From: an uncultured Pirellulales bacterium
GTDB lineage: Bacteria; Planctomycetota; Phycisphaerae; Sedimentisphaerales; SM23-30
NCBI GenBank assembly: GCA_964578395.1
Contig: CAZOCV010000001.1
Location: forward strand, 6,738 to 43,743
Direction: 5' to 3'
Length of the DNA stretch: 37,006 nucleotides
Part shown: piece by piece, positions 475-35,852 of the stretch
Layout of the letters: each line of letters starts with the position of its first letter
How positions within the stretch are numbered: the stretch's first letter is position 1
Program-made: the position numbers and the translations under genes
Notes under the pieces: generated by a model
Told to the model about the DNA's origin: nothing
The model's input: the letters and a program-made list of their open reading frames with translations, nothing else
Databases searched by the model: none

Positions 475-499
475 AACACCAACAATGCGAAACAGATTT

Positions 500-589: not shown

Positions 590-598
590 TGATATAAT
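590..598 (+). promoter_or_regulatory. candidate extended -10 promoter element TGaTATAAT
   Basis: TGATATAAT is read directly at 590-598, 15 nt upstream of ATG 614 and 45 nt upstream of the alternative ATG 644. No convincing -35 was seen. Confidence 0.3.
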
Positions 599-613
599 AT
601 TTTACGTAACGCT

Positions 614-1693: not shown

Positions 1694-1722
1694 TCACGGG
1701 TTTCTACTTAGAATTTATTTGT

Positions 1723-1751
1723 CCGCAGATTACGCAGATTTGCGCAGATAA
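1723..1751. repeat. left inverted-repeat arm, three tandem CGCAGAT-containing units
   Basis: CCGCAGATTACGCAGATTTGCGCAGATAA is read directly. CGCAGAT occurs three times at about 10-nt spacing. Confidence 0.95.
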
Positions 1752-1768
1752 GACAAAAAGACATCATT

Positions 1769-2179
1769 ATGGCTTTAAAAAGAGACGAACAAACATATGC
1801 AATTATTGGGGCGGCGATGGAAGTGCATAATACTCTTGGTCGTGGTTTTCTGGAAGCGGTGTATCAGGAGGCGTTGGCGATTGAGTTTAAAAATAGAGAC
1901 ATTCCTTTTCAACGCGAAGTCCAACTGCCCGTCTATTACAAAACAGAGAAGCTGTCCACTATTTATAAAGCGGATTATGTCTGTTATCAAACAGTCATTG
2001 TCGAATTAAAAGCCCTCGACATCATAACCACAACCGAAGAATCTCAATTGATAAACTACCTGAAAGCTTCAGGTTTTCATCGAGGATTAATTATTAATTT
2101 CGGTTCGGTTAACCTTCAATATAAACGTCTGGTTCTAAACTTCGATAACGAACAATTACTCATAGATGAAAAAATATGA
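1769..2179 (+). CDS. GxxExxY family protein (PD-(D/E)XK nuclease fold)
   Basis: The 136-aa translation contains LGRGFLEAVYQEAL, the GxxExxY signature. A D...VELK-type core (ADYVCYQTVIVELKA) is typical of PD-(D/E)XK folds. The size and N-terminal pattern (YAIIGAAMEVHNTLG) fit the family. Confidence 0.85.
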   Translation: MALKRDEQTYAIIGAAMEVHNTLGRGFLEAVYQEALAIEFKNRDIPFQREVQLPVYYKTEKLSTIYKADYVCYQTVIVELKALDIITTTEESQLINYLKASGFHRGLIINFGSVNLQYKRLVLNFDNEQLLIDEKI

Positions 2180-2192
2180 AAATAATATGGTT

Positions 2193-2221
2193 TTATCTGC
2201 GTAAATCTGCGTAATCTGCGG
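2193..2221. repeat. right inverted-repeat arm, three tandem ATCTGCG-containing units
   Basis: TTATCTGCGTAAATCTGCGTAATCTGCGG is the reverse complement of the left arm except at one position (T2202 opposite G1742). Confidence 0.95.
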
Positions 2222-2236
2222 ATAAAGGCTTTAATC

Positions 2237-3349
2237 ATGCCCCCTGTAACAGAACAAATAAAAGTGCCTTATCTCGACCTGCGAGTTACCGATAATGAAC
2301 AGCGTCAGGCATTGCTTGATGCCGTAGCGCGAGTTTTTGATCACGGTCGGATGATTATGGGGCCGGAAGTAGCCCAGTGGGAAGCAGAACTTGCCCGCCG
2401 CTGCGGCCGGAAATTTGCTGTCGGCGTTAATTCGGGCACCGACGCTCTTTACATGGCCGGACGAATACTGGACCTGCACCCCGGCGATGAAGTCATCACC
2501 ACGGCTATGAGCTGGATAGGAACCGCTAACGGTATCGCCCTGACCGGCGCTACGATGGTGTTCGCCGATATCCGCGATGACCTGAACATCGACCCCGACA
2601 GCGTCGCCCGCCTGATTACGCCCCGCACCAAAGCTATTATGCCGGTTCATTACACCGGTAAAGTGTGCGATATGGATGCGTTACAAAAAATCGCTACAAA
2701 ACATAACCTGCCCATCATCGAAGACGCCGCTCAGGCGTTCGGCGCCGCATATCATGGACGGCCCTCTGGAAGTTTTGGCCGAATTGCCTGTCTAAGCATG
2801 AACGCCATGAAGGTTTTGGCGGCGTGCGGCGAGGCCGGAGCCGTACTCATCGACGACCCTTCCCTGCACGAACGACTTACGGCATTGCGCTATAATGGTA
2901 CGGTCAACCGGGAAACCTGCCTCGAACCCGGCCTTAATGCCCGCCTGGACACCCTACAGGCTGCGATTTTATTGGTACGGCTGCAATATTTCGACGAATT
3001 GGTGGAAAAACGACGGCTTATTGCCCAAAAATATGAAGAAAAACTCTCCGATTTGGTAAAAACGCCGCGCGAAGCGGAAAACTGCCGCGATGTCTGGTAC
3101 ACCTACACCATCCAGACCGACCGGCGGGATGCTCTTCGCGCTTATCTGACCGACAACGGCATCGAAACCAAAATTCACCACCCCATTCTCATGCCTGAAC
3201 AACCGGCATACCGTGATAACGCGCGGGGCGAATGGAAAAACGCCAGCCGAATACTGGGACGCATGTTATCAATACCCGCTCATGAAAAAATGACGCCGGA
3301 ACAGGTTGATTACGTCGCGGCCGCCATCAGGAAATTCTATGGAGCCTAA
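2237..3349 (+). CDS. DegT/DnrJ/EryC1/StrS family PLP-dependent sugar aminotransferase
   Basis: The 370-aa product carries family-typical strings: GPEVAQWEAELA, NSGTDALYMA, IIEDAAQAFGA, and SMNAMK with the candidate PLP lysine. It sits among glycan genes. Confidence 0.9.
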   Translation: MPPVTEQIKVPYLDLRVTDNEQRQALLDAVARVFDHGRMIMGPEVAQWEAELARRCGRKFAVGVNSGTDALYMAGRILDLHPGDEVITTAMSWIGTANGIALTGATMVFADIRDDLNIDPDSVARLITPRTKAIMPVHYTGKVCDMDALQKIATKHNLPIIEDAAQAFGAAYHGRPSGSFGRIACLSMNAMKVLAACGEAGAVLIDDPSLHERLTALRYNGTVNRETCLEPGLNARLDTLQAAILLVRLQYFDELVEKRRLIAQKYEEKLSDLVKTPREAENCRDVWYTYTIQTDRRDALRAYLTDNGIETKIHHPILMPEQPAYRDNARGEWKNASRILGRMLSIPAHEKMTPEQVDYVAAAIRKFYGA

Positions 3350-3845
3350 GCCAAAATCCACAACCTTTTATAATAACCAGGATATCATCGCGGTCGGCCC
3401 GGAAGATTTGGAAAAATTACGCCATGCCGCACGTCACGACCCCCTTGGCCGGGCGCGGCTATGCCTGCATCATCATGTCAACGACGCAGTCCATGAAATG
3501 GTAATTGCTTTTCAGAAAAGCAGTTACATTCATCCGCATCGCCATTTTCATAAAAGCGAATCCTTTCATCTTATCGAGGGCGAGTTGCTGGTGGTGTTTT
3601 TTGACGATGACGGAAAAGAAACCTCGCGTTTGCGGCTGGCGGAGCAGAGAAAAAACGGCCTATTTCTGTATCGGCTGGCGGCAAGCCGCTGGCATACGCT
3701 TATCCCCTTAAGTGAATGGGTAATTATCCACGAAACTACGCCCGGCCCATTCCGGCCGGAAGACACCGAAATGGCGAATTGGGCGCCTGCCGAAATTCAG
3801 GTTGAGACCGTTAAAGCCTTTATCTCAAAAATAATCAGGGCGTAA
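3339..3845 (+). CDS. wbuC: WbuC family cupin-fold metalloprotein
   Basis: RARLCLHHH..HEMVIAF..SYIHPHRH..ESFHLIEGEL..WHTL..HETTPGPF matches my memory of the WbuC cupin pattern. ATG 3339 has AGGA 8 nt upstream and overlaps the aminotransferase stop. The track start 3306 is an upstream in-frame alternative. Confidence 0.7.
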   Translation: MEPKPKSTTFYNNQDIIAVGPEDLEKLRHAARHDPLGRARLCLHHHVNDAVHEMVIAFQKSSYIHPHRHFHKSESFHLIEGELLVVFFDDDGKETSRLRLAEQRKNGLFLYRLAASRWHTLIPLSEWVIIHETTPGPFRPEDTEMANWAPAEIQVETVKAFISKIIRA

Positions 3846-4039
3846 AACACACCCTGGCATCGATAAAACCGTGGGCAGGATGCCATCGATACACACTTAA
3901 CGCTTTTTTGTGGAAAACATAGCCAATAATAACTTTAACTATATTAACAATAATAAGATACATCCGTCATCCAGACGAACTGACATAGGGATAAAATTAA
4001 AGCCTGCCCCGGCGAACGCCCGATAACTAGAAAAAGTGT

Positions 4040-6244
4040 ATGGACTCAACCACCATAAAAACACCGTCGCAGGCTGCACCGGATTTTGCGGCAATGTCGG
4101 CACAGATTGCCGGCCTGATAGCCCAGGCGCGCGGCCATGAGGCTGACGAGGTTCTGGCCGAAATTGAGCAGCGTGCCGCCGACCCCGCCCTACAATTACT
4201 GGCGGCGGCTACGCGACTTTTTCTTCGGGGACAATATCCGGCAGCAATTGATAAATTTCGTCAGGCCGGAGAGTTGCTTACCCCTAAATCCTATCCATCA
4301 TTAAACACCTTTTATTCACAGGCGTATCTCAAAGCCCAACTGGCTTTACCGCCCCAACAACGTCCGGCGGTCATTCAGGGCGAAAAAAATCTGCAAACCA
4401 ACCTTGATGCTTTGGCCGCCATTGACCCGCCCACAGCGGCCATCATCCAAGCCGCCAACTGGCCCAAAGATTTGCTTTTAGTACAATACTGGGAGGGACT
4501 CTGTTTGTTTTCCGTCACTCAGGGAAAGGTCTTCACCCTCGAACCCGATGTTGAAGAACAATTAACGCCGTTGTTTGGCAAACGCGAGCATTCGGCCTTT
4601 CGTTCGCCGCCGGCGTATCCGGCGCTATGCTATTTATTAGCACATCCGTATCAGGGAATTCACGGCATGGCGCGGGCGCACTATCTGGTGGAAGATAACC
4701 CTGAATACGTGAAGGCGTTTTTACATCTGCGTCATTTCGCCGAGCGTGTGCGGCGTCGCGAGTTGATTATTTTCACCGGGGGCCAGACGCGGCAAAATTG
4801 GGAGGAACACTTCCAAACGCTACGTTATGTACCGCCGTTAACGCATTTGGACAGCACCGGCAAACTGGCCGGCGTTATCGCCGACACTCATAAGCTGTTC
4901 ATCATCGAGACTGTTCAGCAACAGGTTCAGGAGTATTATGCGTCGGCGGAATTTCGCCGCCGGCGTGAAGATATTATCGCCGGCCGCCTCCAGCCGCGCA
5001 TCCTTATCGAAACCAGCCGCTGGACAACCTTTTTGCAGTACAGTTCGGCGGATTTTCAGCGCGCCTTCGAAGCCCTGGGCTGCGAAACCCGGCTCATCAA
5101 GGAAGAAAACGACGCCCAAACCCTGACGCTGCCGTTTCGACTGCAAACGCTGGCGGATTTCCAGCCGGACGCCCTTTTTCTCGTCAGCCACGCCCGGCCG
5201 ACAGTCCCCTTTTATCCGCGTCAATTATCCATTATTTCGCACATTCAGGACAAATGCGGCCCGTTGTTGGGATATAATGATCTTCGGGATCACATTACGA
5301 ACACAGACATGCTTGCCTGCGTATCCCGTGAACATCAGCGTTTTATACTTCATAAAAACGTCCCTCTAAACCAAACGCTCATTATGCCGATTCCGGCCGA
5401 TGAAAAACATTTTTACCCTCTACCGGCGGATCATCCGCTGGCCGGCCGGTTTTCGGCCGATATTAGTTTCGTCAAACACGCTGACGGCGAAAAACAACAG
5501 GTTTTCGAGCAATTTCTCGCACATCATCTGCCTCCGGCCCAGCCGCATCTGCATAAAGCGCTCGTGGAAGCATATACGACCTTGTATCAAGAAACCTGCC
5601 AATCGGATGAACGCCGTCACTATGAAGATGAAATGCATCAGTTTATTACCACACGCCTGAAACCCTATATCAGTTCCGAATCACTGGTGCAGATGGAACA
5701 AATAACTCACTTTTTTTTCCTGAAAGTATTTAGCGCTGCCTGGCGCTGCTGCTTTCTTGAGGCGCTGGACCAGGCCGGGCTTACACCGGCGCTATACGGT
5801 AATGACTGGGACAAACATCCGCGTCTGAAGCACGCCGCCCGCGGTCCGGCGGCTTTCGGTGCAGAACTCAACGCCGTGTATAATTTCAGCCGCATCAACC
5901 TGCATATCAACCAGGCCGGAACCATGCACACCCGGCTGGCCGAATGCGGTCTGGCGGGCGGATTTATCATGGCGGCCGACCATCCCCGCGAGCGAGACTG
6001 GTCGCCGGCGCGCGACTTTTTCGAGCAGGACCGCGAAATCGTCTTTTTTGATTCGCGTCAGGACCTGATCGACAAATGCCGCTATTACCTCGCCCATGAA
6101 AATGAACGGCATGACATCGCTCAGCGTCTGAGGGAGCACTGCCGGCGCGAACGCACCTATATCGTCGCCGCGAAATCCATCCTTGACGCCTGGCGCACAC
6201 AACTGAGCCGTTTTCAGCAATGCGCCTCCGGAGATAATCAATGA
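4040..6244 (+). CDS. large soluble protein with C-terminal CgeB-like glycosyltransferase domain (Glyco_trans_1_2/DUF3880 type); N-terminal ~550 aa unassigned
   Basis: The 734-aa product has no TM helix. Its C-terminal region (NFSRINLHINQ..RLAECGLAGGFIM..EIVFFDSRQDLIDKCRYYLAHENERHDIAQ) resembles CgeB-type GT tails. A TPR-like helix pair lies near residues 50-80. It is the first gene after a 194-bp AT-rich gap. Confidence 0.6.
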   Translation: MDSTTIKTPSQAAPDFAAMSAQIAGLIAQARGHEADEVLAEIEQRAADPALQLLAAATRLFLRGQYPAAIDKFRQAGELLTPKSYPSLNTFYSQAYLKAQLALPPQQRPAVIQGEKNLQTNLDALAAIDPPTAAIIQAANWPKDLLLVQYWEGLCLFSVTQGKVFTLEPDVEEQLTPLFGKREHSAFRSPPAYPALCYLLAHPYQGIHGMARAHYLVEDNPEYVKAFLHLRHFAERVRRRELIIFTGGQTRQNWEEHFQTLRYVPPLTHLDSTGKLAGVIADTHKLFIIETVQQQVQEYYASAEFRRRREDIIAGRLQPRILIETSRWTTFLQYSSADFQRAFEALGCETRLIKEENDAQTLTLPFRLQTLADFQPDALFLVSHARPTVPFYPRQLSIISHIQDKCGPLLGYNDLRDHITNTDMLACVSREHQRFILHKNVPLNQTLIMPIPADEKHFYPLPADHPLAGRFSADISFVKHADGEKQQVFEQFLAHHLPPAQPHLHKALVEAYTTLYQETCQSDERRHYEDEMHQFITTRLKPYISSESLVQMEQITHFFFLKVFSAAWRCCFLEALDQAGLTPALYGNDWDKHPRLKHAARGPAAFGAELNAVYNFSRINLHINQAGTMHTRLAECGLAGGFIMAADHPRERDWSPARDFFEQDREIVFFDSRQDLIDKCRYYLAHENERHDIAQRLREHCRRERTYIVAAKSILDAWRTQLSRFQQCASGDNQ

Positions 6245-7176
6245 CTCAAACCGCCATCAAAACGGCGCCGCCCGCAAAAATCACCGTATTCCCGCCCTAT
6301 TTACAGATTGAAACCGTCGCCCTCTGCAACGCCCGCTGCACCATGTGCACCTCGCGCAACTGCCGACGGGAAACGCGGCTGATGACCGATGAACTTTTTG
6401 CTAAAATCGTCGGCGAACTGGCCCCTCATAGCAACGGCATAAAACGCATCACCATACAGGGCCTGGGAGAGCCTTTACTCGACAAACAACTTGAAACGCG
6501 GATCCGCATGCTCAAAGACGCCGGTGCCGCTTTGGTCGCTTTCGCCACCAACGGTTCTTTAATGAATGCCAAAAGAGCGGCTGCGATACTGGATTGCGGA
6601 GTTGACGAGGTCACTTTTTCCGTGGACGGCATTACCCGGGAAACGTATGAAGGCATACGCATCGGCCTCAAATTTGATGAAGTGATGGCGAATATCGAAC
6701 AATTCGTTCACCTGCGCAACCGGATTAAAGCAAAAACCGTTATCCGTATCCGCTGGACGGCTCAGCAAGCCAACCACGATGAACTGCAGGGATTCAACCG
6801 CTTCTGGAATAAACGCCTTGGCCCCGGAGATACGGCTTACGCCAAAATCATTCACACCTGGGGCAACACCGCCGAATATGACGAGTTGCCTGATAATTAT
6901 GATTTTGAACGGCTTAACCGACAGCCGTGTCCTTCGCTGTGGACGTCGCTTATTATTTTTTCAGACGGACAAATACCCTTATGCTGCAGCGACTTCAACG
7001 CCCGCATCTGCCTGGGCGACGTCAAGCGCCAGACCATCACCGACGTCTGGAACAGCCCGATTTTGGCGCGGATACGGGAAAAACATCTCACCGCCGGCCG
7101 GGGCACCATGGCGATGTGCGCCAACTGCGTCGTCTGGGATGATGAAGCGAAAATCGACGCGCACTCAGATAAATAA
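6241..7176 (+). CDS. radical SAM/SPASM domain protein
   Basis: CNARCTMC (CxxxCxxC) lies at about residue 29, and GLGEPLL is present. The C-terminal Cys-rich block (CPSLW..PLCCSDF..CANC) is typical of SPASM. There is an ATGA overlap with the upstream stop. Confidence 0.85.
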   Translation: MTQTAIKTAPPAKITVFPPYLQIETVALCNARCTMCTSRNCRRETRLMTDELFAKIVGELAPHSNGIKRITIQGLGEPLLDKQLETRIRMLKDAGAALVAFATNGSLMNAKRAAAILDCGVDEVTFSVDGITRETYEGIRIGLKFDEVMANIEQFVHLRNRIKAKTVIRIRWTAQQANHDELQGFNRFWNKRLGPGDTAYAKIIHTWGNTAEYDELPDNYDFERLNRQPCPSLWTSLIIFSDGQIPLCCSDFNARICLGDVKRQTITDVWNSPILARIREKHLTAGRGTMAMCANCVVWDDEAKIDAHSDK

Positions 7177-7191
7177 ATAAACCATCAAAAA

Positions 7192-9276
7192 ATGGATAAC
7201 TCCATGAACATGACTGTTTACCTGGCGGACCTGACCCACACCGGCGTGGGCGTCAACTCCAGTGCATTCCCACTGGGTATCGGCATCGTCGCGGCTTACG
7301 CCCGACAGCATTTCGGCGCCCGGTGGCAAGGAGAATTGTTTAAATTCCCCGATGAACTTAACGAGGGCCTGCGGCGAAAAATGCCCCACGTACTGGGTTT
7401 CAGCAACAACTGCTGTAATTTCAATCTATCTCGCGCCTTCGCGCAATACGTCAAAAAACAGAATCCTCAAACCGTCGTCGTTTTCGGCGGGCCTAATTTC
7501 CCGACCACGCCGCCGGGCCGCGCCGCTTTTCTGCGTGATTGTCCTGAAATCGATTTTTACATCAAATGGGACGGCGAAATCGCTTTTGTTAAACTGCTGG
7601 AATATCTGGCGGCCCGGCATTTTGACGCAGCCGGTTTTAAAAAAGAACGTCTTCTCCCGGAAAATTGCTGTTATCTTGCCGCTGATGACTACCTTGAAGG
7701 CCCTGATCATCGCATCGATGATTTCAGCGCCATCCCCAGCGCTTATACTTCCGGAACACTTGACGCCTTCTTTGGGCGGGGACTCCACCCGCTGGTGGAA
7801 ACCACGCGCGGCTGCCCCTATTCGTGCACCTATTGCAATGACGGCCACGACTTCAAACGATATATCATGAAAAAATCCGCCGCCGCCGTCGCCGCAGAGC
7901 TGGACTACATCGCTCAACGCATCGATCCGGCCGCGGAGTTATGGCTGTGCGATAATAATTTCGGCATGTTCACCGAAGACCTGCACACCAGCGGTGTTAT
8001 CAGCCGTCTGATCAAAACGTACGGCTGGCCGCACGCCCTGCAAACCTCCAACGGCAAAAGCCACCCCGAACGCATTTACGAATCCCGCCGCATTATCAAC
8101 GAGCACCGCGACGGCACGCTGCGTTTCGGCGCTTCGCTGCAAAGCACCGATCCTGAGGTATTACGGCGGATTAAACGCCGCAACCTTCCCGTCAAGGAAT
8201 TACTCAAACTGAATCAATTGCGGCGCGCCGCTCACAACCACCGCACCGCTTTTTTCACCGAACTGATTCTGGCCTTGCCCGGCGACAGTCTGGCGCGGCA
8301 TTATCAGTCACTGCACGACGCCATCGACACGCTGGGCGTAACCAACATCGACATCCACCAGCTAAACCTGCTCCATGGCGCGCCTATGGCCGACGGCGAT
8401 GACCTCCAGCGCTACCAATTTGACGTGCGTTACCGCGTTTTCGTGGGCTGTTTCGGCCTGTACCGTATCGGCGACAACGATATCCCCTGCGCCGAAATCG
8501 ACCGAGTAGTCGTCGGCAATAATACGCTCTCCTTTGAGGATTACCTCGAGTGCCGGGTGATGAACCTGCTGATTAAAATCTTCATTGATTACGATCCTTT
8601 CCGGGAAGTGCTGGGGTTGCTGCGGCATCTGCAACTGAGCATCTTCGACTGGCTGCGGCTGCTGAAAGACGAATTCCTGCCTTGCTCCACGCCGCTGACC
8701 CGGCTGGTCGATAGTTTTCTCCGCGACACGCAAAAACCGCTGTTCCCCGACAAAGCAACCATAAACCGTTTTTTGCAAAATCCCGATCATATTCGCCAGT
8801 ATATCTCCGGCGAACGCGGCGGCAATGAACTGTTAAATCATAAGGCCAGGGCATTCCTGGAGCATCTCGACGCTCTGCATGACATTCTGCACGACAGTGT
8901 AAAAGCATACCTGCAGCGCCGGCAGCGCTTGACGAATGACCTGGCCGACTACCTCGCCCAAGCCGTAGCCTTCAGCCGCCTGACCAAATTCAATCCGTAT
9001 CACCTCGACCAGACCCCGCAGAGTGAATTCACGTTCGATTTCATCGCCGCTCAGCGCGAAGATTTTCAGGTGAATCCCGCCGATATTCGCACCGAACGCA
9101 CGATTTATTGCTTCGTCTATGACGCCGACACGCTGGATTACATTCGGACGCGCATGGCTTGCTGGGGCGGCGAAAATATCGCTCAACTGGGCAAACTCCT
9201 GCAAAAAACCAACCTGCAACTCATTAACCGCCGGCCCGTACCTCTGACCCTCCCTCGCTCCCTGCAACCGGCTTAA
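7192..9276 (+). CDS. B12-binding domain radical SAM protein (class B type)
   Basis: An N-terminal Rossmann-like segment (VLGFSNNCCNF..VVVFGGPNFP) is followed by TTRGCPYSCTYCNDG. The 694-aa product has a long C-terminal extension. Confidence 0.8.
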   Translation: MDNSMNMTVYLADLTHTGVGVNSSAFPLGIGIVAAYARQHFGARWQGELFKFPDELNEGLRRKMPHVLGFSNNCCNFNLSRAFAQYVKKQNPQTVVVFGGPNFPTTPPGRAAFLRDCPEIDFYIKWDGEIAFVKLLEYLAARHFDAAGFKKERLLPENCCYLAADDYLEGPDHRIDDFSAIPSAYTSGTLDAFFGRGLHPLVETTRGCPYSCTYCNDGHDFKRYIMKKSAAAVAAELDYIAQRIDPAAELWLCDNNFGMFTEDLHTSGVISRLIKTYGWPHALQTSNGKSHPERIYESRRIINEHRDGTLRFGASLQSTDPEVLRRIKRRNLPVKELLKLNQLRRAAHNHRTAFFTELILALPGDSLARHYQSLHDAIDTLGVTNIDIHQLNLLHGAPMADGDDLQRYQFDVRYRVFVGCFGLYRIGDNDIPCAEIDRVVVGNNTLSFEDYLECRVMNLLIKIFIDYDPFREVLGLLRHLQLSIFDWLRLLKDEFLPCSTPLTRLVDSFLRDTQKPLFPDKATINRFLQNPDHIRQYISGERGGNELLNHKARAFLEHLDALHDILHDSVKAYLQRRQRLTNDLADYLAQAVAFSRLTKFNPYHLDQTPQSEFTFDFIAAQREDFQVNPADIRTERTIYCFVYDADTLDYIRTRMACWGGENIAQLGKLLQKTNLQLINRRPVPLTLPRSLQPA

Positions 9277-9297
9277 CCTTTCGAGGCCATCGCGTTT

Positions 9298-10494
9298 ATG
9301 TACCGTTATTATGTCGCCGAAAACTTTAATCCCACCTATGCCCGGCTGGAAAAAGCCGACCGGCTTGCTGATTTTATGGCCCAGCGGCTTTTCATGCTTC
9401 AGCATCGCCTGAACCTGCCGCTGCCGATGTGGCGCGATTGTCAGGTACTGGAATTTGGCCCGGCCGCCGGTGAAAACGCTCTCGTGAACGCTTTGCTCGG
9501 CGCCGACGTTCATCTGGTCGAACCGGTGGCGGCCTTTCACGAAAAAATCCGTGATTATTTCGCCACCTGGAGGCAAAACCATCGCCTCAAACAACTTACG
9601 ATTTCCACTTTAAATGAGTTTCAGACCAACGAACAGTTCGCCCTGGTTATCGCGGAGGGCTTCGTTTACACCACCGGCCCGGCCGAACAGTGGACCAAAC
9701 GCCTCGCCTCCTTCTGCGGCGAGCAGGGATTTATCCTGATAAGTTTTCCCGCGGTGTCCGGTTTTCTTATCGAAATGCTGCAAAGCCGCATTTGCCGCCT
9801 GGTCGCGTCACAACGCCGTTTGGATAAAGTTCAGGTTGCTGATTTAATCCTTGGCGCCAAATGGAGGGCTATCCCCCACTCGCGCAGTTTTGAATCATGG
9901 GCCAATGATGTGCTTTTTCACCCCTTTATCCGTTATGAATCGCTGAATCATCCCGATGATATCATCAAATTAATGTATCATATCGGCTTCGACATGTATT
10001 CCTCCTGGCCGCTGCTATCAAGCCCCTACGATGTCACCTGGATTCGCCAGACGCCGTCGCGCGAACAACTCTGCAATAACTATACCCATGCAGCGCTGGC
10101 CCTGCAGCCCAGTCTGCTCCTGGGCCGGCCCGTACCCCTCAAGCCTGATGTCAGTGACGCTTCTCTTATGGCGCTGCATCAGGCTCTCGACCAGGAATTA
10201 CGCTGTTTGGATGCTCTCAACGCGGAGGATGAAACAAGTTTTACGCCTATTGTTACCGCCCATGAGCGCTGTTGTCAGCACCTGGCGGACGTCGTGCTGG
10301 AATACCATCAATCGCCTCTAATGAAAATGATGAACGAAATTAAAATATGCCTTCATCATGCTAAAAATTCTCCGGAAGAACTTTCTCTGTGCTTTCAACC
10401 CGGGCGACTGCTGGGCGATCTCTGGGGCAGCCCGAATTTTTATATGGTGTTTCATCGGGCCATGCCCGTAAAAAAAGCGAAAATTAAACCATGA
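9298..10494 (+). CDS. hypothetical protein, probable class I methyltransferase fold
   Basis: VLEFGPAAGENAL (motif I-like), VHLVEP (acidic loop) and FALVIAEGFV (motif IV-like) occur in the right order. The C-terminal 200 aa are unassigned. Confidence 0.5.
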   Translation: MYRYYVAENFNPTYARLEKADRLADFMAQRLFMLQHRLNLPLPMWRDCQVLEFGPAAGENALVNALLGADVHLVEPVAAFHEKIRDYFATWRQNHRLKQLTISTLNEFQTNEQFALVIAEGFVYTTGPAEQWTKRLASFCGEQGFILISFPAVSGFLIEMLQSRICRLVASQRRLDKVQVADLILGAKWRAIPHSRSFESWANDVLFHPFIRYESLNHPDDIIKLMYHIGFDMYSSWPLLSSPYDVTWIRQTPSREQLCNNYTHAALALQPSLLLGRPVPLKPDVSDASLMALHQALDQELRCLDALNAEDETSFTPIVTAHERCCQHLADVVLEYHQSPLMKMMNEIKICLHHAKNSPEELSLCFQPGRLLGDLWGSPNFYMVFHRAMPVKKAKIKP

Positions 10495-10943
10495 CTCAAA
10501 CCGTATCCCATTATCGTCTCGACCAGCTCCGCGAAGGCCGGGAAGCAGTTTTCGAAGAGGAAATAACGCCGGCGCTGGTGGACGGCTTCGCGGCGCTATC
10601 GGGCGATGTCAGCCCGCTGCACGTCGATGACGCCTTCGCGCGGGAGCGCGGCTTTGGCGGCCGCGTGGCGCACGGGATGATTTTAGGGGCGTTCGTCAGC
10701 CGCCTGGTCGGCGTGCATTTGCCCGGAGCCAACGCCCTGCTGCAATCGGTCAATCTGAAATTTCTCGAACCGGTTTACCTCCATGACCGCCTGCGCATCG
10801 TCGGCCGCGTGGAACAGGTGTCTGAGGCCGCCGGCGCGGTCGTCCTGCAGGTGACCATCACCAACATCCAAAACGATCAGATGGTCGCCAAAGCCAAAGT
10901 GCAGGTAGGTTTTACAAAACCGGCCCGGGGGGAACCGACATGA
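10491..10943 (+). CDS. MaoC-like (R)-hydratase/dehydratase, hot-dog fold
   Basis: The 150-aa product contains SGDVSPLHVDDAFARERGFGGRVAHGM, the MaoC hydratase-2 type motif. There are ATGA overlaps at both ends. Confidence 0.85.
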   Translation: MTQTVSHYRLDQLREGREAVFEEEITPALVDGFAALSGDVSPLHVDDAFARERGFGGRVAHGMILGAFVSRLVGVHLPGANALLQSVNLKFLEPVYLHDRLRIVGRVEQVSEAAGAVVLQVTITNIQNDQMVAKAKVQVGFTKPARGEPT

Positions 10944-12529
10944 TTGATTTTATCATCATCAGCCAATCGGACGTGGTGGATTATGACCAGTACGCCCAAC
11001 TGCCGCTGGACCGGCTGGAGTTGTACCGCGATCTGGTGTTTCCGCGCATGGTGCGCCATGCAGGACGATTCCGGCCGCACCTGGATATGATGCACCTGGC
11101 GCGTTCGCACCCAAATGACGCCGGACTGAATATCTGGAACCTGCCGACATTCGCCGGCATACATCTGGCCGATGTGCTGGCCGCCGATGGCATCAACGTC
11201 GCGGTAATCAATAATATCCGCACCGAATGGACGCGATTTTGCTTTTTGTATGCTCAGTGCTCCACCCCGCCGCTGGTGGGCATTTCCACGACCTTTTATC
11301 TGTCCGCCCGCCCCATTACCCGCATCATCAAAAAACTGCGCACCATCGACCCTGATATGGCCATCGTGCTGGGCGGGGCATTCGTCAATGAACAATGGCG
11401 CAATCACGGCCCGGATGCCTTCAGTAGCCTGATGCTCAAGCATCGCCTTGATTATATTCTCCACGGATTCAACTCCGAAATCGACCTGCGCGATCTGATA
11501 CGAGCGCGCCGCGGACGCGGCCGGCTCGCGGATGTGGCCAATCTTATATATCGTTGTGATGATACAACGGCCGTCACTTCAACGTGCTGGCATGACCCTG
11601 TCCTTAACGACGCCCCGGGACAATGGGACCGGCTGGATTTGCCCTTTATCAACCACACCGTGCAAATGCGAACCTCCAGCGGCTGCCCTTTCGCTTGCGC
11701 CTTTTGCTCTTATCCGCAAACGGCGCAGGGATTTTTCCAGATGGAACCCGGCCGCATTGCCGCTCATTTGCAAAATATTGCACAAATTCCCGGCGTCAAT
11801 CGCATCATTTTTATTGATGATACCTTTAATGTCCCGCCCCGGCGATTTGAGCAATTACTCACGCTGCTGGAACATCATGATTTTACCTGGTTCGCCTTCA
11901 TCCGCGCACAATTCGTGGATGACCGCATCGCCCGGCGCATGTATCAAAGCGGCTGCCGCGGCGTTTATCTCGGCCTGGAATCCGCCAATGATGACGTGCT
12001 GCGCAGCATGAACAAGCTCGCTCGCCGCGATGAATACATCCGCGGCGTCGCGGCCCTGAAAAACGCCGGCATCATCACGCTGGCGGCCTTTATTATCGGC
12101 TTTCCCGGCGAAACGGAAAATAGCCTGCGCGACGATGTGACCTTCATCGAAACCGCCGGCCTGGACTATTACACTCTCAAGGAATTTTATTACATGCCCC
12201 ATACACCCGTGCATCAGCATAGCGCCGACTTTGGCCTCAGCGGCTCCGGCGCGGACTGGTCGCACGCCACGATGGATTCCGCCCGGGCGCGGCAGGCGAA
12301 ACTGGACATGTTCGGCGAAATTAAAAACTGCACCTGGTTCGACGCCGACGCCAATTTATGGGGACTGGCCTATTTGTATGACCAGGGATTTTCGTTTGAG
12401 CAGATTCAGCGCGGCCAGCAAATCATCAATACCATCATCGCCGACCAGATCGCCGGCGACCTGCGCGATCCGCATCCGGCCTTCGACCGGCTTAAGGCTC
12501 TTTTACAACGAGAGACGGTTTCAGTATGA
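10940..12529 (+). CDS. B12-binding domain radical SAM protein (class B type)
   Basis: VGISTTFY..IVLGGAF (B12-binding-like) is followed by MRTSSGCPFACAFCSYP. The product is 529 aa. Confidence 0.8.
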   Translation: MIDFIIISQSDVVDYDQYAQLPLDRLELYRDLVFPRMVRHAGRFRPHLDMMHLARSHPNDAGLNIWNLPTFAGIHLADVLAADGINVAVINNIRTEWTRFCFLYAQCSTPPLVGISTTFYLSARPITRIIKKLRTIDPDMAIVLGGAFVNEQWRNHGPDAFSSLMLKHRLDYILHGFNSEIDLRDLIRARRGRGRLADVANLIYRCDDTTAVTSTCWHDPVLNDAPGQWDRLDLPFINHTVQMRTSSGCPFACAFCSYPQTAQGFFQMEPGRIAAHLQNIAQIPGVNRIIFIDDTFNVPPRRFEQLLTLLEHHDFTWFAFIRAQFVDDRIARRMYQSGCRGVYLGLESANDDVLRSMNKLARRDEYIRGVAALKNAGIITLAAFIIGFPGETENSLRDDVTFIETAGLDYYTLKEFYYMPHTPVHQHSADFGLSGSGADWSHATMDSARARQAKLDMFGEIKNCTWFDADANLWGLAYLYDQGFSFEQIQRGQQIINTIIADQIAGDLRDPHPAFDRLKALLQRETVSV

Positions 12530-14409
12530 ATGCTTCGGACAAAAAAACCGCTCTGGATAAAATCAAACAGCTTATACAGCAGGCTGATTATCAGGAAGCG
12601 TTTCATGCGCTGCTGCATCTTGCTTCGCCTGATGATGATTTCGTTTTGCAGTCGCGTTATGCCGCGCTGTTTGGCAAAATCCCCGCCGACCAATTAAACC
12701 TGCATGAAGTCCGATTGGCGCTGGTCGCCACCAGCACCATCGATCATTTTGCCGGCATTGTGCCTTTCTGGCTGGCGACATTCGGCCTGCGCAGCAAAAT
12801 TTTTCTGGCCCCGCATAACACCCTGCAACAAACCATCCTCGACACAACCAGCGGTCTTTATGCCTTCAAACCCGATGTTACCTTCCTGTTTACCAATCAC
12901 CGCGATGTGCAAATCGATGTGCCGCCGGGAAGCACGGCGGATGAAGCCAACCAGGCGGTCCAACTGGCCGCGGACCTATGGCGCGGTTTATGGAATAATC
13001 TGCTCCATCATAGCGGCGGCCACATTCTTCACAATAACGCCGATATCCCCCACGTCCGCGCGTATGGCAATTACGATGCGGCCATTGCCTGGGGCCGCAG
13101 CCATCTGCTGCAGCGATACAATCTTGAATTGGCTAAAAACCTGTCGGCGGGCGTAACGCTATTCGACCTGGACGCTCTGGCCGCCCGCTTCGGCAAAGAC
13201 CGCTGGTTTGATGAACGCTACTGGCATCATTCTCAACACGCCTTTTCCCTCGACGCATCCGGTCTGGTTGCCCATCAAACCGCCGCCGTCATTGCCGCCA
13301 TCAAGGGCCGGGCCAAAAAGTGCATCGTCCTCGACTTGGACAACACCCTCTGGGGCGGCGTAGTCGGCGATGAGGGCTGGCAAAATCTCCAACTCGGCCA
13401 CGGCGTCAATGGCGAGGCTTATGCCGCGTTTCAAAAATATCTGCTGGAACTTAAAAACCGCGGCATCGTTCTGGCGGTATGCTCCAAAAACGAAGACACC
13501 ATCGCCCGCGAACCCTTCCTGCATCATCCTGAAATGCAACTGCGGCTCGAAGACATCGCCGTTTTCGTCGCCAATTGGAATAATAAAGCGGACAATATTC
13601 GTTATATCGCCCAAACGCTCAACCTTGGCCTCGATGCTCTGGTGTTCCTGGATGATAATCCGGCCGAACGCGAACTCGTCCGCCGCTGCCTGCCTATGGT
13701 CGCCGTCCCCGAATTGGGCGATGATCCCACCCGCTATATCCGCATCCTTGACCATGCCGCCTGTTTTGAAACCATCACCTTTTCCGACGAAGACCGACGA
13801 CGCAGCGATTTCTATCGTGATAATGCCCGTCGCGCGGAACTTCAGCAGCAGTTCAGCGATCTGTCCGGCTATCTGCAAAGCCTGGACATGACGGCGGACG
13901 TCGGCGATTTCGATGAACTGCGCCTGCCCCGTATCGCCCAGCTTATTAATAAAAGTAATCAGTTCCATCTGACCACCACGCGCTATAGCGAAACGCAACT
14001 GCTGATGATGATACAGGACTCCGCCTGGCTGGGGCGGCATTACAGCCTTGCAGATAAATTCGGCCGTCACGGTCTGATTTCGGCGGTCATCCTCCGGCGT
14101 ACCGCCGACAACGCTCTGGACATTGATACCTGGGTAATGAGTTGCCGCGTCCTATCCAAAAGTATGGAGCAATTCGTCGCCAACGATATCATCGCCTGCG
14201 CCCGCCGCCTCGGTTGCCGCCGCCTCATCGGCCGATACCGCCCCACCGCCAAAAACCAACTGGTCGCCGACCTGTATCAGCGTCTGAAATTCACACCCCT
14301 GAGCCAAAATGATGCTGAAACGCTATGGACATTGGACCTCGGCGACGCTAACCTGAACTACGAAACGTTTATCCGCCATTCTCAGTCACTGGCTGAGATA
14401 ACTTTATGA
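12526..14409 (+). CDS. FkbH-like HAD-IIIC family protein with C-terminal GNAT-like region
   Basis: KKCIVLDLDNTLWGGVVGDEG carries the HAD DxDxT motif in the FkbH/HAD-IIIC context. AVCSKNE and VFLDDNPAERE are also present, and the C-terminal block (ISAVILRR..DTWVMSCRVLSKSME) is acyltransferase-like. Confidence 0.85.
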   Translation: MNASDKKTALDKIKQLIQQADYQEAFHALLHLASPDDDFVLQSRYAALFGKIPADQLNLHEVRLALVATSTIDHFAGIVPFWLATFGLRSKIFLAPHNTLQQTILDTTSGLYAFKPDVTFLFTNHRDVQIDVPPGSTADEANQAVQLAADLWRGLWNNLLHHSGGHILHNNADIPHVRAYGNYDAAIAWGRSHLLQRYNLELAKNLSAGVTLFDLDALAARFGKDRWFDERYWHHSQHAFSLDASGLVAHQTAAVIAAIKGRAKKCIVLDLDNTLWGGVVGDEGWQNLQLGHGVNGEAYAAFQKYLLELKNRGIVLAVCSKNEDTIAREPFLHHPEMQLRLEDIAVFVANWNNKADNIRYIAQTLNLGLDALVFLDDNPAERELVRRCLPMVAVPELGDDPTRYIRILDHAACFETITFSDEDRRRSDFYRDNARRAELQQQFSDLSGYLQSLDMTADVGDFDELRLPRIAQLINKSNQFHLTTTRYSETQLLMMIQDSAWLGRHYSLADKFGRHGLISAVILRRTADNALDIDTWVMSCRVLSKSMEQFVANDIIACARRLGCRRLIGRYRPTAKNQLVADLYQRLKFTPLSQNDAETLWTLDLGDANLNYETFIRHSQSLAEITL

Positions 14410-14654
14410 CTGAAAAACGCCACAAACTTCGCCAACGGCTGAATCGAGTGTTTCAGGAAACCTTCGACGACGATGCCATCGATATTTTCGATGAAATGAC
14501 CGCCGCCGACCTCGACGAATGGGATTCCCTTATGCACATCACCCTCGTCATCGCCACGGAAAAGGAATTTGGCCTGGAACTCAAGGCCGATGAGGTCGGC
14601 CGCCTGCAAAACGTCGGCGCTATGCTCGATCTGCTCGAACAGCGCGTGAGTTGA
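14406..14654 (+). CDS. acyl carrier protein
   Basis: The 82-aa product is acidic. LDEWDSLMHITL contains the D-S-L phosphopantetheine attachment serine. It lies directly after the FkbH-like gene with an ATGA overlap. Confidence 0.8.
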   Translation: MTEKRHKLRQRLNRVFQETFDDDAIDIFDEMTAADLDEWDSLMHITLVIATEKEFGLELKADEVGRLQNVGAMLDLLEQRVS

Positions 14655-14656
14655 CC

Positions 14657-15718
14657 ATGACGATTTCCCTCCGCCAGGCCCGCCCCGATGATATCGACCA
14701 GCTTATCCCGCTTTTCCGTAGTGTATATCGCCACAATCCCCGCCTGACCGAACGCGATTACCTCGACTGGCAGTTTCGCGGCGGCGCTTTCGCCCAGCAC
14801 CACGATTATCATCTCTGGCTGGCCGAACAGGAAGGTCAAATCGTCGCTTTTCTCGGTTACGTGCCCGTGGAATTTTATCACCACGGCCAATTGCTTAAGG
14901 GATGTTGGCCGCAAAATTGGGCCGCACCCGGCCAGAAACTCGCCGGTTTCGCCGTTCTTTCCAAACTCATGGAATCCTTCGACAACCTTTTTTATGTCGG
15001 CCTAACGAATGATACCATGAATATTTTCCAGCGTTTGCATGTCCCCATGCAGCGATGCATGCCTCGCTGGCTGGGCATCCTCGACGCAACAAAAACAGCA
15101 TCTATGTTTGGTATCAGCAGTCAACAGGACATGGAGATTATCGGACGTAGTTCTCTGAAATGCCCCAACCATCCCTCCGGCCCGGACATATCCTGCTGCA
15201 CCCGCTTCGCCGATGACATTGACTTTCGCTTTGACCATATTCCTGCGGTTCAAAGCTACTCCCGCCGCACCGGCTCTTACCTGAATTGGCGTTATTTTGA
15301 TATTCCCCGCCACAATTATCGCGGTCTGTACGCCAAAACCGGACAATTCGCTGTCTATCGCATCGAAACCATCACCGGCCACGAGGCCGCCGTACTGCGT
15401 ATTCTGGAATGGTCCTTTACCGGAAATCTCGCCGCTGAGGCTCTTGGGTGGCTCCTGCAGGATGCCCGCCGCCATGGCGTTATTTTGATGGACTTTTTCT
15501 GCACCGCCCCCGCCGTCGGCCGCGAACTGGAAAACCTCGGTTTTTTCCCCCAATCCGAACTAAAAACACCCATTCCCTACCTTTTTCGTCCGGTTTGTCA
15601 GGCCGATGGCATTTCTGTCGCCGTCGATCTGCCCCCCCATCGCCAACCCCGCGACCTCGATTTTTCCACCTGGTATATCACCAAAGGCGATAGCGATATC
15701 GACCGCATTAAATGTTGA
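14657..15718 (+). CDS. hypothetical protein, GNAT-like N-acyltransferase fold suspected
   Basis: The N-terminus ISLRQARPDDIDQLIPLF resembles GNAT starts; the rest is unassigned. ATG 14657 is preferred over the track TTG at 14651. It is the last gene of the plus-strand run. Confidence 0.5.
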   Translation: MTISLRQARPDDIDQLIPLFRSVYRHNPRLTERDYLDWQFRGGAFAQHHDYHLWLAEQEGQIVAFLGYVPVEFYHHGQLLKGCWPQNWAAPGQKLAGFAVLSKLMESFDNLFYVGLTNDTMNIFQRLHVPMQRCMPRWLGILDATKTASMFGISSQQDMEIIGRSSLKCPNHPSGPDISCCTRFADDIDFRFDHIPAVQSYSRRTGSYLNWRYFDIPRHNYRGLYAKTGQFAVYRIETITGHEAAVLRILEWSFTGNLAAEALGWLLQDARRHGVILMDFFCTAPAVGRELENLGFFPQSELKTPIPYLFRPVCQADGISVAVDLPPHRQPRDLDFSTWYITKGDSDIDRIKC

Positions 15719-15750
15719 TTTTTTCCTATTTCTTACCCAAAAAATTCGCT

Positions 15751-16443
15751 TTAATCCGATGTTGATACCAATTCGTCAAGCATAGCAGCAGATATTTCAC
15801 GTAAATTATCCACAATTCTGTCCGCCGAACCAAGTTGCTCCCTCTGATAACTATTACTTACGGCTACGCACATCATTCCCGCCCCTTTGGCCGCCTGAAT
15901 CCCCCAGGAACTATCTTCGATGGCGATACATTTCTCGGGCGTCAATTTTTTGCCGCCTATCAGCCGCCCCGCCCGTTCCATACTTAATTTATATCCTTCA
16001 GGGTCCGGCTTACCCGCCCGCACATCATCTGCGGCAACAATCGTCACAAAATTATCCCTCAGGCCCGATCCGGCCAGCATCATCTCTATTTCCGCACGCA
16101 ACGCCCCCGAACAAATAGCCGCCGGAATGTGAGATTTTCGCAATTCCTGCAAGAATTCCCTTACTCCCGGATAAATTTCCGTCTTTTTTTGGGCTAAAAT
16201 AGCGAAAATTGCGGCTTTTTTTGCCGCCAAACCTTCTATTATCGCCTTATTTCCCTCCCTGCCGGCATTCTTCAGGGCAACCGGGAATAATTCTATATCA
16301 CTATATCCCAAATACTTACGACAATATTCCTCCCACGATAGGGGAATATTTATCTCCTGTAGTGTTTTTCGCACTGCCTCAAAATGCAATGGCTCACTAT
16401 CGACGATCACCCCGTCGAAATCGAAAACCACTAATTCCACCAT
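15751..16443 (-). CDS. HAD-IA family hydrolase (beta-phosphoglucomutase-like)
   Basis: VVFDFDGVIVDSEPLH (DxDG motif I), AICSGA, GKPDPEGY and IAIEDSSWGIQAAKGAGM are all present. ATG 16443 is preferred over the upstream TTG at 16473. Confidence 0.85.
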   Translation of the reverse strand: MVELVVFDFDGVIVDSEPLHFEAVRKTLQEINIPLSWEEYCRKYLGYSDIELFPVALKNAGREGNKAIIEGLAAKKAAIFAILAQKKTEIYPGVREFLQELRKSHIPAAICSGALRAEIEMMLAGSGLRDNFVTIVAADDVRAGKPDPEGYKLSMERAGRLIGGKKLTPEKCIAIEDSSWGIQAAKGAGMMCVAVSNSYQREQLGSADRIVDNLREISAAMLDELVSTSD

Positions 16444-16593
16444 AATGGTCGCGCTCCCTGTAATATACTGCAAAACAACAAGTTATATCTCTTTCTGGAC
16501 AGCTTTATCCAGGCCTCACCCCCGTATTTTACTTGCCATCGGGCGTGCGGAGGAGATAATAGCACCCATAAGACGATTTGTATAATTTTGTGA

Positions 16594-35849: not shown

Positions 35850-35852
35850 ATT

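Follow-up and report, generated by a model that had tools for sequence, protein, structure and literature searches.

Members of the FkbH family charge a dedicated carrier with a three-carbon unit, and the loading of glyceryl onto acyl carrier protein (ACP) as the thioester glyceryl-S-ACP is established for the family (PMC7489565). In AerB the glyceryl unit is methylated and sulfated and finally serves as an N-acyl cap (PMC7489565, PMC10143770), and FkbH-loaded glycerate that has been tailored on its carrier becomes an N-acyl cap in the suomilide and varlaxin non-ribosomal peptide synthetase (NRPS) pathways (PMC10143770). Here we analyze a 37,006-nucleotide stretch of DNA (the window) from an uncultured Pirellulales bacterium (assembly GCA_964578395.1, contig CAZOCV010000001.1, positions 6,738 to 43,743), in which a run of nine genes (4040-15718, plus strand) brings an FkbH protein and its ACP together with radical S-adenosylmethionine (SAM) enzymes, a glycosyltransferase (GT) and a protein with two GNAT folds, next to genes for sugar amination. 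We consider it probable that the locus is a glycan-tailoring operon in which separate acyl and sugar branches converge on a joining and delivery step, placing a modified, C3-derived acyl group in N-linkage on an amino sugar of a surface glycan. We report the domain identities, catalytic motifs, gene order, natural fusions and co-occurrence of these genes, from which we infer the substrates, step order, product and acceptor.

The polyketide synthase (PKS) and NRPS systems that employ FkbH proteins and ACPs, namely those for methoxymalonyl-ACP, for tetronates and for aeruginosin/suomilide (AerB), share with the window a HAD-IIIC FkbH protein, a dedicated carrier and tailoring of the tethered unit. 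Unlike these systems, the window contains no PKS, NRPS, FkbI/FkbK-type dehydrogenases or FabH-like enzyme. Its tailoring enzymes would instead be a MaoC dehydratase and cobalamin (B12) radical SAM enzymes, and off-loading would fall to a stand-alone tandem-GNAT protein encoded beside a sugar aminotransferase.

The general logic of such a pathway has precedents in Campylobacter (cj1302 and di-O-methylglyceroyl-pseudaminic acid), in the modified viosamine of Pseudomonas syringae and in the N-glyceroyl-pseudaminic acid of Tannerella. In the P. syringae vio, Vibrio cholerae O1 tetronate-perosamine and Bacillus anthracis anthrose (antABCD) systems, all of which N-acylate 6-deoxy amino sugars in a carrier-protein- or CoA-dependent manner, one locus encodes an aminotransferase, an acyl-making enzyme (a hydratase or an ACP-dependent enzyme), an N-acyltransferase and a GT, and the outcome is a sugar bearing a short hydroxyacyl amide. 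These viosamine, perosamine and anthrose loci differ from the window in drawing their acyl groups from fatty-acid-synthesis-type enzymes or leucine catabolism rather than from FkbH and in using acyltransferases of other folds, and they are not known to involve radical SAM enzymes. The neighbors of Campylobacter cj1302 are presumably ACP, GNAT and methyltransferase genes. Compared by description only, the Campylobacter island resembles the window in having an FkbH gene in a glycosylation setting and a glycerate-derived acyl group on an amino sugar; it differs in its linked flagellin and maf genes, which are absent from the window, and is not known to have a B12 radical SAM enzyme or MaoC. In C. 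jejuni the FkbH-domain gene cj1302 lies in the flagellar glycosylation island (PMC7099621), and the structures of the di-O-methylglyceroyl-pseudaminic acid of C. jejuni 11168 and of the modified viosamine of P. syringae are known (PMC3958885). The genetic basis of the N-glyceroyl sugar of Tannerella, Pse5Am7Gra, was called unknown, and "a major challenge", in 2017 (PMC5378307).

Individual components of the locus also have described relatives. The class B C-methylases TokK/ThnK, CysS and KedN5 and the P-methylase PhpK have a B12-like N-terminal domain and a CxxxCxxC radical SAM core, and the B12 enzymes of the window share this core and have a candidate B12-like N-terminal domain; unlike in those systems, the enzymes of the window fall under the family cut-offs and are accompanied by no carbapenem, cystobactamid, enediyne or phosphonate genes. 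In cassettes that are common among relatives of the locus, the ACP, a membrane-bound O-acyltransferase (MBOAT) and a partner protein mirror DltC, DltB and DltD of the Dlt system. Unlike Dlt, the window has no MBOAT, an FkbH loader rather than a DltA-type adenylating enzyme, and a soluble tandem-GNAT protein. A preliminary description of this DNA had not recognized the gene set as a characterized pathway, and we likewise found no paper describing it and no characterized equivalent. Among the papers searched, none connects FkbH with O-antigen, with the pair GNAT and glyceryl or with the pair radical SAM and MaoC, and none connects N-glyceroyl with ACP; FkbH combined with ACP, aminotransferase and polysaccharide gave one unrelated bioinformatics paper, FkbH with flagellin gave only Campylobacter cj1302, and FkbH with MBOAT only unrelated aeruginosin work. 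The general strategy is known; the enzyme set, the tandem-GNAT family and the action of a B12 radical SAM enzyme on a small acyl-ACP appear to be uncharacterized. To our knowledge, a small acyl-ACP has not been described as a substrate for this enzyme class.

Results

A conserved run of nine genes

The open reading frame (ORF) listing places nine long co-directional plus-strand ORFs end to end between 4040 and 15718 (4040-6244, 6241-7176, 7192-9276, 9298-10494, 10491-10943, 10940-12529, 12526-14409, 14406-14654 and 14651-15718). The preliminary description had counted eleven genes here, while its own list also named nine; the higher count is reached only by adding the DegT aminotransferase and WbuC cupin genes (2237-3845), both of which lie 5' of 4040. 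Its account of the junctions was accurate: ATGA start/stop overlaps occur at exactly 6241, 10491, 10940, 12526 and 14406, all genes are on the plus strand, and no gap exceeds 21 nt, the only two positive gaps being 15 and 21 nt. A sixth junction is a TTGA overlap at 14651, or else the last gene starts at ATG 14657. Pfam and NCBIfam bore out its nine motif calls within the run (in order, Glyco_trans_1_2, radical SAM with SPASM, B12 radical SAM, a weak methyltransferase-like match, MaoC, B12 radical SAM, FkbH, ACP and a weak GNAT match), as well as the four upstream (methyltransferase, radical SAM, DegT and WbuC). The motif CxxxCxxC is present in all four radical SAM proteins of the window.

The same nine genes recur in the same order in locus L001, at 46-73% protein identity (56% for the GNAT-like protein). 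In L052, a Sedimentisphaerales metagenome-assembled genome (MAG), the genes for the upstream radical SAM enzyme (rSAM359), DegT, WbuC, the GT, the SPASM enzyme, the first B12 radical SAM enzyme, the 398-aa protein and MaoC are contiguous at 71-88% identity, and the nine-gene order is counted as recurring there too, at 71-84% identity. The source of the window is probably a related planctomycete of the Phycisphaerae type. Because the same order is kept in L001 and L052, the linkage is functional, and judged by this conservation the gene run is a real, conserved operon. Chance adjacency was rejected in view of the synteny conserved in two other metagenomic bacteria.

The operon is preceded by a 194-bp gap (3846-4039), which had been described as AT-rich. 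Its size and lower GC content (41%, against approximately 54% inside the run) were confirmed, but it does not bound the system: the genes from rSAM359 through MaoC are contiguous in L052, where the equivalent gap is approximately 115 bp, and the system therefore starts 5' of 4040. The functional unit probably even extends beyond the 5' edge of the window; the gap itself may hold an internal promoter. Promoter-like matches were not enriched over shuffled sequence (14 versus 12.7 expected), terminator-like matches were commoner (29 versus 17.6 expected), and none of the latter marks either end of the run. As these scans place neither run end, they are silent on whether the run forms a single transcript. 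No tRNA or Rfam element, including a cobalamin riboswitch, was found in the window.

Loci L002, L058 and L055 have a related order comprising genes for a short-chain dehydrogenase/reductase (SDR), a split transketolase, a methyltransferase (MT), a radical SAM enzyme, MaoC, the B12 radical SAM enzyme, FkbH, ACP, the GNAT-like protein, (MT), DegT and WbuC; in L055 the GT, SPASM and 398-aa genes precede it. The SDR epimerase/dehydratase and the transketolase (N and C subunits) are encoded at L002 1261-4080, L055 6242-9061, L058 105-3056 and L004 535-3289, just upstream of the MT and radical SAM genes. Because the window opens inside its MT gene, its own SDR and transketolase genes probably lie just upstream of its start, and the presence of transketolase in the relatives makes a thiamine diphosphate-dependent two-carbon transfer onto the sugar possible.

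The co-occurrence of the modules was assessed by tblastn of the window proteins against all fetched loci. FkbH, ACP and GNAT-like genes are adjacent in approximately 23 of 37 distinct loci, often together with MaoC, in Planctomycetota, Lentisphaerota, Latescibacterota, Verrucomicrobiota, Acidobacteriota, Chloroflexota and Patescibacteria. Wherever the close clade of the GNAT-like protein occurs, DegT and WbuC are present, and they are found only with GNAT-like proteins that are at least 40% identical, plus L024; the pair is seen in L002, L004, L006, L007, L052 and L058, with WbuC always after DegT. The 734-aa GT, the 694-aa B12 radical SAM enzyme and the 398-aa protein occur together only in the window, L001 and L052 (L055 has the GT, SPASM and 398-aa genes). 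Among the loci compared, the 694-aa enzyme is confined to those three, and most of those with both the acyl and the amino-sugar core lack the GT. In the Elusimicrobia relative L004, a 250-nt gap before the GNAT-like gene (9744-9998) holds an 84-aa ORF with the motif LQKYGTTE, which resembles a fragment of an adenylate-forming enzyme and may be a decayed loader.

Two distant relatives have the GNAT-like gene among polysaccharide genes. L015, from a Verrucomicrobiae MAG, has FkbH, ACP, the GNAT-like protein and MaoC amid genes for NeuB, a NeuC-like epimerase, a CMP-transferase, a D-2-hydroxyacid dehydrogenase, a polysaccharide deacetylase, a Wzt ABC transporter and GT2 enzymes; together, its FkbH, MaoC and 2-hydroxyacid dehydrogenase would be compatible with the synthesis of a lactyl-type acyl group. 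On a plasmid of Azospirillum ramasamyi, two GT4 genes, a deacetylase, an ACP, an adenylating enzyme and AsnB precede the GNAT-like gene. Both settings favor a role in N-acylating sugar amines during polysaccharide synthesis. The neighbors of a homologue on an Escherichia albertii plasmid are uninformative.

The FkbH loader, its carrier and the tailoring enzymes

The FkbH-type HAD-IIIC protein (12526-14409, +, 627 aa) scores well above the family thresholds (TIGR01686, 276.5 bits versus 146.65; TIGR01681, 65.2 versus 35.75; FkbH_N, 43.9 versus 27) and matches PDB 3slr with an E value of 5e-81. Residues D270 and D272 (in DLDNT), S320, K354, D376, D377 and S539-C540-R541 are at least 90% conserved among 23 homologues, and Cys540 would be the catalytic cysteine that forms the acyl-enzyme intermediate. 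Characterized FkbH systems draw on 1,3-bisphosphoglycerate, and the protein of the window is predicted to convert this metabolite to glyceryl-S-ACP. The dedicated ACP (14406-14654, +, 82 aa) has a PP-binding match of 21.6 bits (cut-off 20.8) and a DSL serine motif, and its ORF overlaps the FkbH stop codon; homologues of 54-73% identity follow FkbH in many loci.

Upstream of the loader lie the genes for two candidate tailoring enzymes. The MaoC-type (R)-hydratase/dehydratase (10491-10943, +, 150 aa; PF01575, 72.1 bits versus a cut-off of 27) has its catalytic Asp38 and His43 in the motif SGDVSPLH. The second enzyme (10940-12529, +, 529 aa) is a PhpK-like class B radical SAM protein with CPFACAFC at residue 249 (C249/C253/C256) and a Radical_SAM match above cut-off. 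It matches the PhpK family TIGR04479 over its full length with 367.5 bits, below the family cut-off of 600, and among solved structures it is closest to the diol dehydratase AprD4 (E 7e-16). In the two B12 radical SAM enzymes of the window (this one and the 694-aa enzyme described below), the B12-binding domain PF02310 scores 25.3 and 24.3 bits, the gathering score being 32.1. The family of the 529-aa enzyme is large (more than 519 clusters at E<=1e-20, approximately 50% identity across phyla), and no relative was found in a plasmid collection. A phosphonate pathway, which the PhpK match had prompted, was rejected, because the enzyme misses the PhpK family cut-off and there is no PEP mutase: no PEP_mutase domain occurs in the Pfam-annotated genes of the window or of the annotated related loci.

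A tandem-GNAT protein linked by natural fusions to activated acyl donors

The last gene of the operon (14651-15718, +) encodes a 355-aa protein that has no Pfam family of its own and is predicted to transfer an acyl group from the ACP to a sugar amine. Its Pfam matches, Acetyltransf_9 (21.2 bits versus 25) and Acetyltransf_1 (16.8 versus 20.7), are both below the gathering score; distant members of the family do pass the Pfam GNAT thresholds. The AlphaFold2 model (pLDDT 94.3) contains two GNAT folds in one chain, and Foldseek matched it to N-myristoyltransferases and Eis2 with a probability of 1.00, E of approximately 1e-12 and a TM score of approximately 0.5. The family comprises 416 representative clusters at E<=1e-30 and is nameless in every source examined, and a profile search of the PDB found no solved relative.

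Natural fusions suggest the kind of donor that these proteins would use. The homologue P0268 joins FkbH_N, HAD, PP-binding and GNAT-like regions, P0264 and P0270 join PP-binding to the GNAT-like region, and P0298 joins it to AMP-binding. Fusion with FkbH and ACP domains or with an adenylating domain ties the GNAT-like protein to carrier- or adenylate-activated acyl donors. The 355-aa protein of the window is accordingly placed, by these fusions and by the ACP gene immediately upstream, as a predicted user of a carrier-protein-bound acyl donor.

The acyl module belongs to a widespread cassette

A metagenome scan with a profile of the PhpK-like enzyme returned 80 loci. The PhpK-like gene directly follows MaoC in 43 of the 69 loci in which this could be evaluated, and it directly precedes FkbH in 26 of the 43 loci evaluable for that junction. 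Nineteen of the 34 loci that are at least 7 kb long encode MaoC, FkbH, ACP and an MBOAT, and just one (L058) encodes the GNAT-like protein. The common order among loci L056, L057 and L059-L137 is MaoC, radical SAM, FkbH, ACP, MBOAT and partner protein, and in Bradyrhizobium (L056 6152-13787) and Paramagnetospirillum marisnigri (L057 9573-16086) the MBOAT-coupled cassette lies inside polysaccharide loci. The MBOAT family O-acylates extracytoplasmic polymers. We found no paper describing a MaoC/PhpK-like/FkbH/ACP/MBOAT cassette.

The quartet of FkbH, ACP, MaoC and B12 radical SAM genes, which the preliminary description had singled out for co-occurrence profiling, is not peculiar to this locus: these genes occur widely as a cassette, usually with an MBOAT as partner. 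Its pairing with the 355-aa protein is limited to the small clade of the window, and the window is a rare version that would couple the acyl module to N-acylation. Since the PhpK-like enzyme travels with MaoC, FkbH and ACP whether the partner is GNAT-like or an MBOAT, it belongs to the acyl-ACP module.

Putative sugar-side genes and an insertion

The window opens inside a gene for a class I SAM MT (1-474, +; Pfam Methyltransf_11/31/25), the 5' end of which is cut by the window edge and which has a DVGCGKG motif at bases 49-69. Homologues of 62-63% identity lie directly 5' of the rSAM359 homologue in L002, L055 and L058. The radical SAM enzyme rSAM359 (614-1693, +, 359 aa) has no B12 domain, a Radical_SAM match of 82.6 bits and CNHRCNYC at residue 44; its weak solved relatives are SkfB and DesII, and homologues of 68-88% identity occur in L002, L011, L052, L055 and L058. 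Both genes are conserved with the system, and the interval between them (475-613) contains TCATTCTGAGCGCAGCGAAGAATC, which occurs once in the window. A GxxExxY/PD-(D/E)XK gene (1769-2179; TIGR04256, 142 bits) lies within a plus-strand segment at 1718-2226 that is bounded by 37-nt inverted repeats, 92% complementary. L052 lacks this gene, its rSAM359 and DegT homologues being separated by approximately 10 nt. Because it is flanked by inverted repeats and absent from L052, the gene is an insertion; it looks like a small mobile element inside the operon and outside the pathway.

The DegT-family pyridoxal phosphate-dependent sugar aminotransferase (2237-3349, +; Pfam DegT, 351.6 bits) has as its best solved relatives the C-3 aminotransferases DesV (2oga, 253 bits), WbpE and QdtB (233-253 bits), with weaker matches to C-4 enzymes (perosamine synthase, ArnB and WecE, 150-187 bits). 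It is followed by a WbuC-family cupin (3306-3845, +, alternative start ATG 3339; TIGR04366, 139.7 bits versus a cut-off of 42) that had no match in a PDB sequence search. Within the nine-gene run, the second gene (6241-7176, +) encodes a 311-aa radical SAM/SPASM enzyme, both domains of which are above the Pfam cut-off (Radical_SAM, 62.7 bits; SPASM, 48.8 bits), with CNARCTMC at residue 29 and six C-terminal cysteines. Among solved structures it is nearest to BtrN (E 1.8e-12), followed by BlsE (E 8e-6). BtrN acts on an aminocyclitol and BlsE on a sugar nucleoside, and the SPASM enzyme probably acts on a sugar in the manner of BtrN. In butirosin synthesis a BtrN-like dehydrogenase is followed by a DegT transaminase; by analogy, the BtrN-like and DegT pair of the window recalls this logic, as a cupin followed by a transaminase recalls FdtA/FdtB.

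The glycosyltransferase, the 694-aa enzyme and the 398-aa protein

The first gene of the run (4040-6244, +) encodes a 734-aa GT with a Glyco_trans_1_2 match of 88.5 bits over residues 571-715. It had been labeled a CgeB-like "GT-tail" protein, a label that understates it: the AlphaFold2 model (pLDDT 87.6) is a complete GT-B glycosyltransferase with extra N-terminal domains, consisting of N-terminal helical repeats, a Rossmann-like middle region and a C-terminal GT-B (GT4-like) fold that Foldseek matched to the GT4 enzymes MshA, HepE, BshA and TreT (E 4e-8 to 1e-6). The family is rare (13 clusters), the best match being 71% identical and from a Sedimentisphaerales MAG, and its members are auto-annotated as CgeB, a spore-surface maturation protein. 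The N-terminus had no match in a PDB sequence search, and no search matched the repeat region to tetratricopeptide repeats (TPR).

The 694-aa cobalamin-type (class B) radical SAM enzyme (7192-9276, +) matches the iterative C-methylases TokK (7kdx, E 6e-33) and CysS (9n1b, E 1e-28) over residues 19-410, has CPYSCTYC at residue 208 (C208/C212/C215) and a Radical_SAM match above cut-off, and scores 130 bits against the KedN5 family NF033712, below its cut-off of 700. The adjacent 398-aa protein (9298-10494, +) is methyltransferase-like (Methyltransf_23, 22.3 bits, below the cut-off of 27), had no NCBIfam or PDB match, and has a conserved VLEFGPAGGEN motif and homologues of 46-74% identity in L001, L052 and L055.

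Other features of the window

No flagellin, maf or nonulosonic-acid genes were found in the window, and the hallmarks of O-antigen and capsule clusters (Wzx/Wzy, ABC exporter, initiating transferase, sugar-nucleotide synthesis) are absent within and next to 1-16500; O-antigen/capsule-type genes do occur beside relatives of the operon. Four tandem paralogous GT2 genes with a period of approximately 1040 nt occupy 32835-37006, a fifth starting at the window edge; this array is separated from the operon by 17 kb, and a tyrosine recombinase gene (28935-29924, -) lies in between. Between the operon and the recombinase gene, 12-nt tandem repeats in two genes (20374-22161, -, and 23640-26171, -) encode (Pro-Gly-Met-Met)n repeats; one of the proteins has no family match and the other is an 843-aa PilM-domain fusion.

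Discussion

We propose the following route for the operon. In the acyl branch (10491-14654), FkbH would take a glycolytic C3 unit and load it as glyceryl-S-ACP, and MaoC and the PhpK-like cobalamin radical SAM enzyme would remodel the carrier-bound unit by beta-dehydration and one C-methylation, in either order. As a low-confidence guess, the tailored acyl group could be a 2-oxobutanoyl or 2-hydroxybutenoyl C4 unit, to which the TokK/CysS-like 694-aa enzyme, and perhaps also the 398-aa protein, may add further methyl groups. The sugar branch would comprise DegT and WbuC, the BtrN-like SPASM enzyme, the MT and rSAM359, with genes 5' of the window probably contributing; a keto sugar would be made and then transaminated, probably at C-3. 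The 355-aa tandem-GNAT protein would move the finished acyl group from the ACP to the amine of the DegT-made sugar, and the 734-aa GT-B enzyme would pass the sugar to its acceptor, a glycan or a protein. The preliminary description had already suggested that an FkbH-loaded, dehydrated and/or C-methylated acyl unit is put on an amino sugar by the GNAT-like protein, and this is partly supported by the adjacency of the genes in approximately 23 of 37 loci, by the fusions and by the company of DegT and WbuC. It is unlikely that all three radical SAM enzymes of the run work on the acyl chain, as only the PhpK-like enzyme tracks FkbH, ACP and MaoC and the SPASM enzyme is nearest to BtrN and BlsE.

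Several observations weigh against this route. No nucleotidyltransferase, 4,6-dehydratase, flippase, polymerase, ABC exporter or initiating transferase gene lies beside the operon in the window, and with no sugar-activation genes there the amine acceptor could be a sugar phosphate, a cyclitol or another compound. DegT also scores well with scyllo-inosose and NtdA-type transaminases. The Elusimicrobia relative (L004) has the GNAT-like protein with DegT and WbuC and without FkbH or ACP. The GNAT and B12-binding Pfam matches are below their gathering thresholds, and the PhpK-like enzyme, which misses the PhpK cut-off and finds its best solved relative in AprD4, may be no methylase at all.

This last point leads to the most serious alternative, which concerns chemistry: the PhpK-like enzyme, the TokK-like enzyme or both might carry out radical dehydration, rearrangement or cyclization, with the glyceryl unit or the sugar as substrate, leaving the acyl group without a C-methyl. 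AprD4 is a diol dehydratase and glyceryl-ACP is a 1,2-diol; the 529-aa enzyme is under the PhpK cut-off and the B12-binding scores are under the gathering score; and the NCBIfam matches of both enzymes include BchE, HpnJ and BzaD, class B enzymes that are not known as methylases. Nevertheless, the full-length PhpK match of 367 bits far exceeds the 57-bit AprD4 match, TokK and CysS, which the 694-aa enzyme matches with E 1e-28 to 6e-33, are proven methylases, and dehydration is already covered by a separate MaoC, so that we regard chemistry other than methylation as unlikely, while giving it more weight than the alternatives that follow.

The remaining alternatives concern the destination of the acyl group, and we think both improbable, to about the same degree. 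The product might not be a cell-surface glycan but a diffusible secondary metabolite that resembles an aminoglycoside, aminocyclitol or nucleoside and bears an unusual N-acyl group. The enzyme mix is of the kind usual in aminoglycoside clusters (a BtrN-like radical SAM enzyme, a DegT protein with good matches to inosose and kanosamine transaminases, putative class B radical SAM methylases akin to TokK, CysS and KedN5, and a GT), Wzx/Wzy, an ABC exporter and sugar-activation genes are missing beside the operon in the window, and the L058 operon ends without a GT. Set against this, related loci carry GT2, GT4, a polysaccharide deacetylase, a Wzt-type ABC transporter, NeuB/NeuA and PEP-CTERM proteins; neither PKS nor NRPS genes are present, nor are the resistance or regulator genes that usually mark antibiotic clusters; and the acyl cassette is usually coupled to an MBOAT, a member of a family that O-acylates extracytoplasmic polymers. 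Alternatively, the locus might serve O-glycosylation of a pilin, S-layer, PEP-CTERM or other surface protein recognized by the helical repeats of the 734-aa GT. The modeled arrangement of N-terminal helical repeats followed by a GT-B fold is reminiscent of FlmG and OGT, homologues are auto-annotated as CgeB, three PEP-CTERM proteins are encoded just downstream in L002, and the known glycerate-acylated sugars are found on glycoproteins (PMC3958885, PMC5378307). Yet there is no adjacent flagellin, pilin, Maf or S-layer gene, the PilM-like genes being 8 kb away on the other strand, no search matched the repeats to TPR, and the GT is missing from most loci with the acyl and amino-sugar core. N-acylation of an amino sugar in glycan synthesis remains the reading that we favor.

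A broader interpretation takes in the MBOAT-coupled relatives. The cassette may be a phylum-spanning acyl-donor factory for cell-surface glycans, not recognized before, that turns a glycolytic C3 unit into a C-methylated, dehydrated acyl-ACP, serving in its common form MBOAT-dependent O-acylation outside the cytoplasm and in its rare form N-acylation of amino sugars in the cytoplasm by a new tandem-GNAT family. We hold this interpretation, including its corollary that the GNAT and FkbH genes are the missing basis of N-glyceroyl groups, more tentatively than the route proposed for the operon itself. The sister MBOAT cassette occurs in cultured hosts, namely Bradyrhizobium oligotrophicum S58-like strains and Paramagnetospirillum marisnigri.

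Bacterial surface sugars can carry unusual N- and O-acyl groups, which shape antigenicity as well as recognition by phages and hosts. The locus and its relatives offer a candidate route to N-acyl sugars by way of FkbH, ACP and the tandem-GNAT protein, a protein family of approximately 400 representative clusters without a Pfam model, and a widely distributed B12 radical SAM enzyme whose substrate appears to be a small acyl-ACP. If the cassette is indeed such an acyl-donor factory, the tandem-GNAT/FkbH pair would be the missing genetic basis of N-glyceroyl-type sugar modifications.

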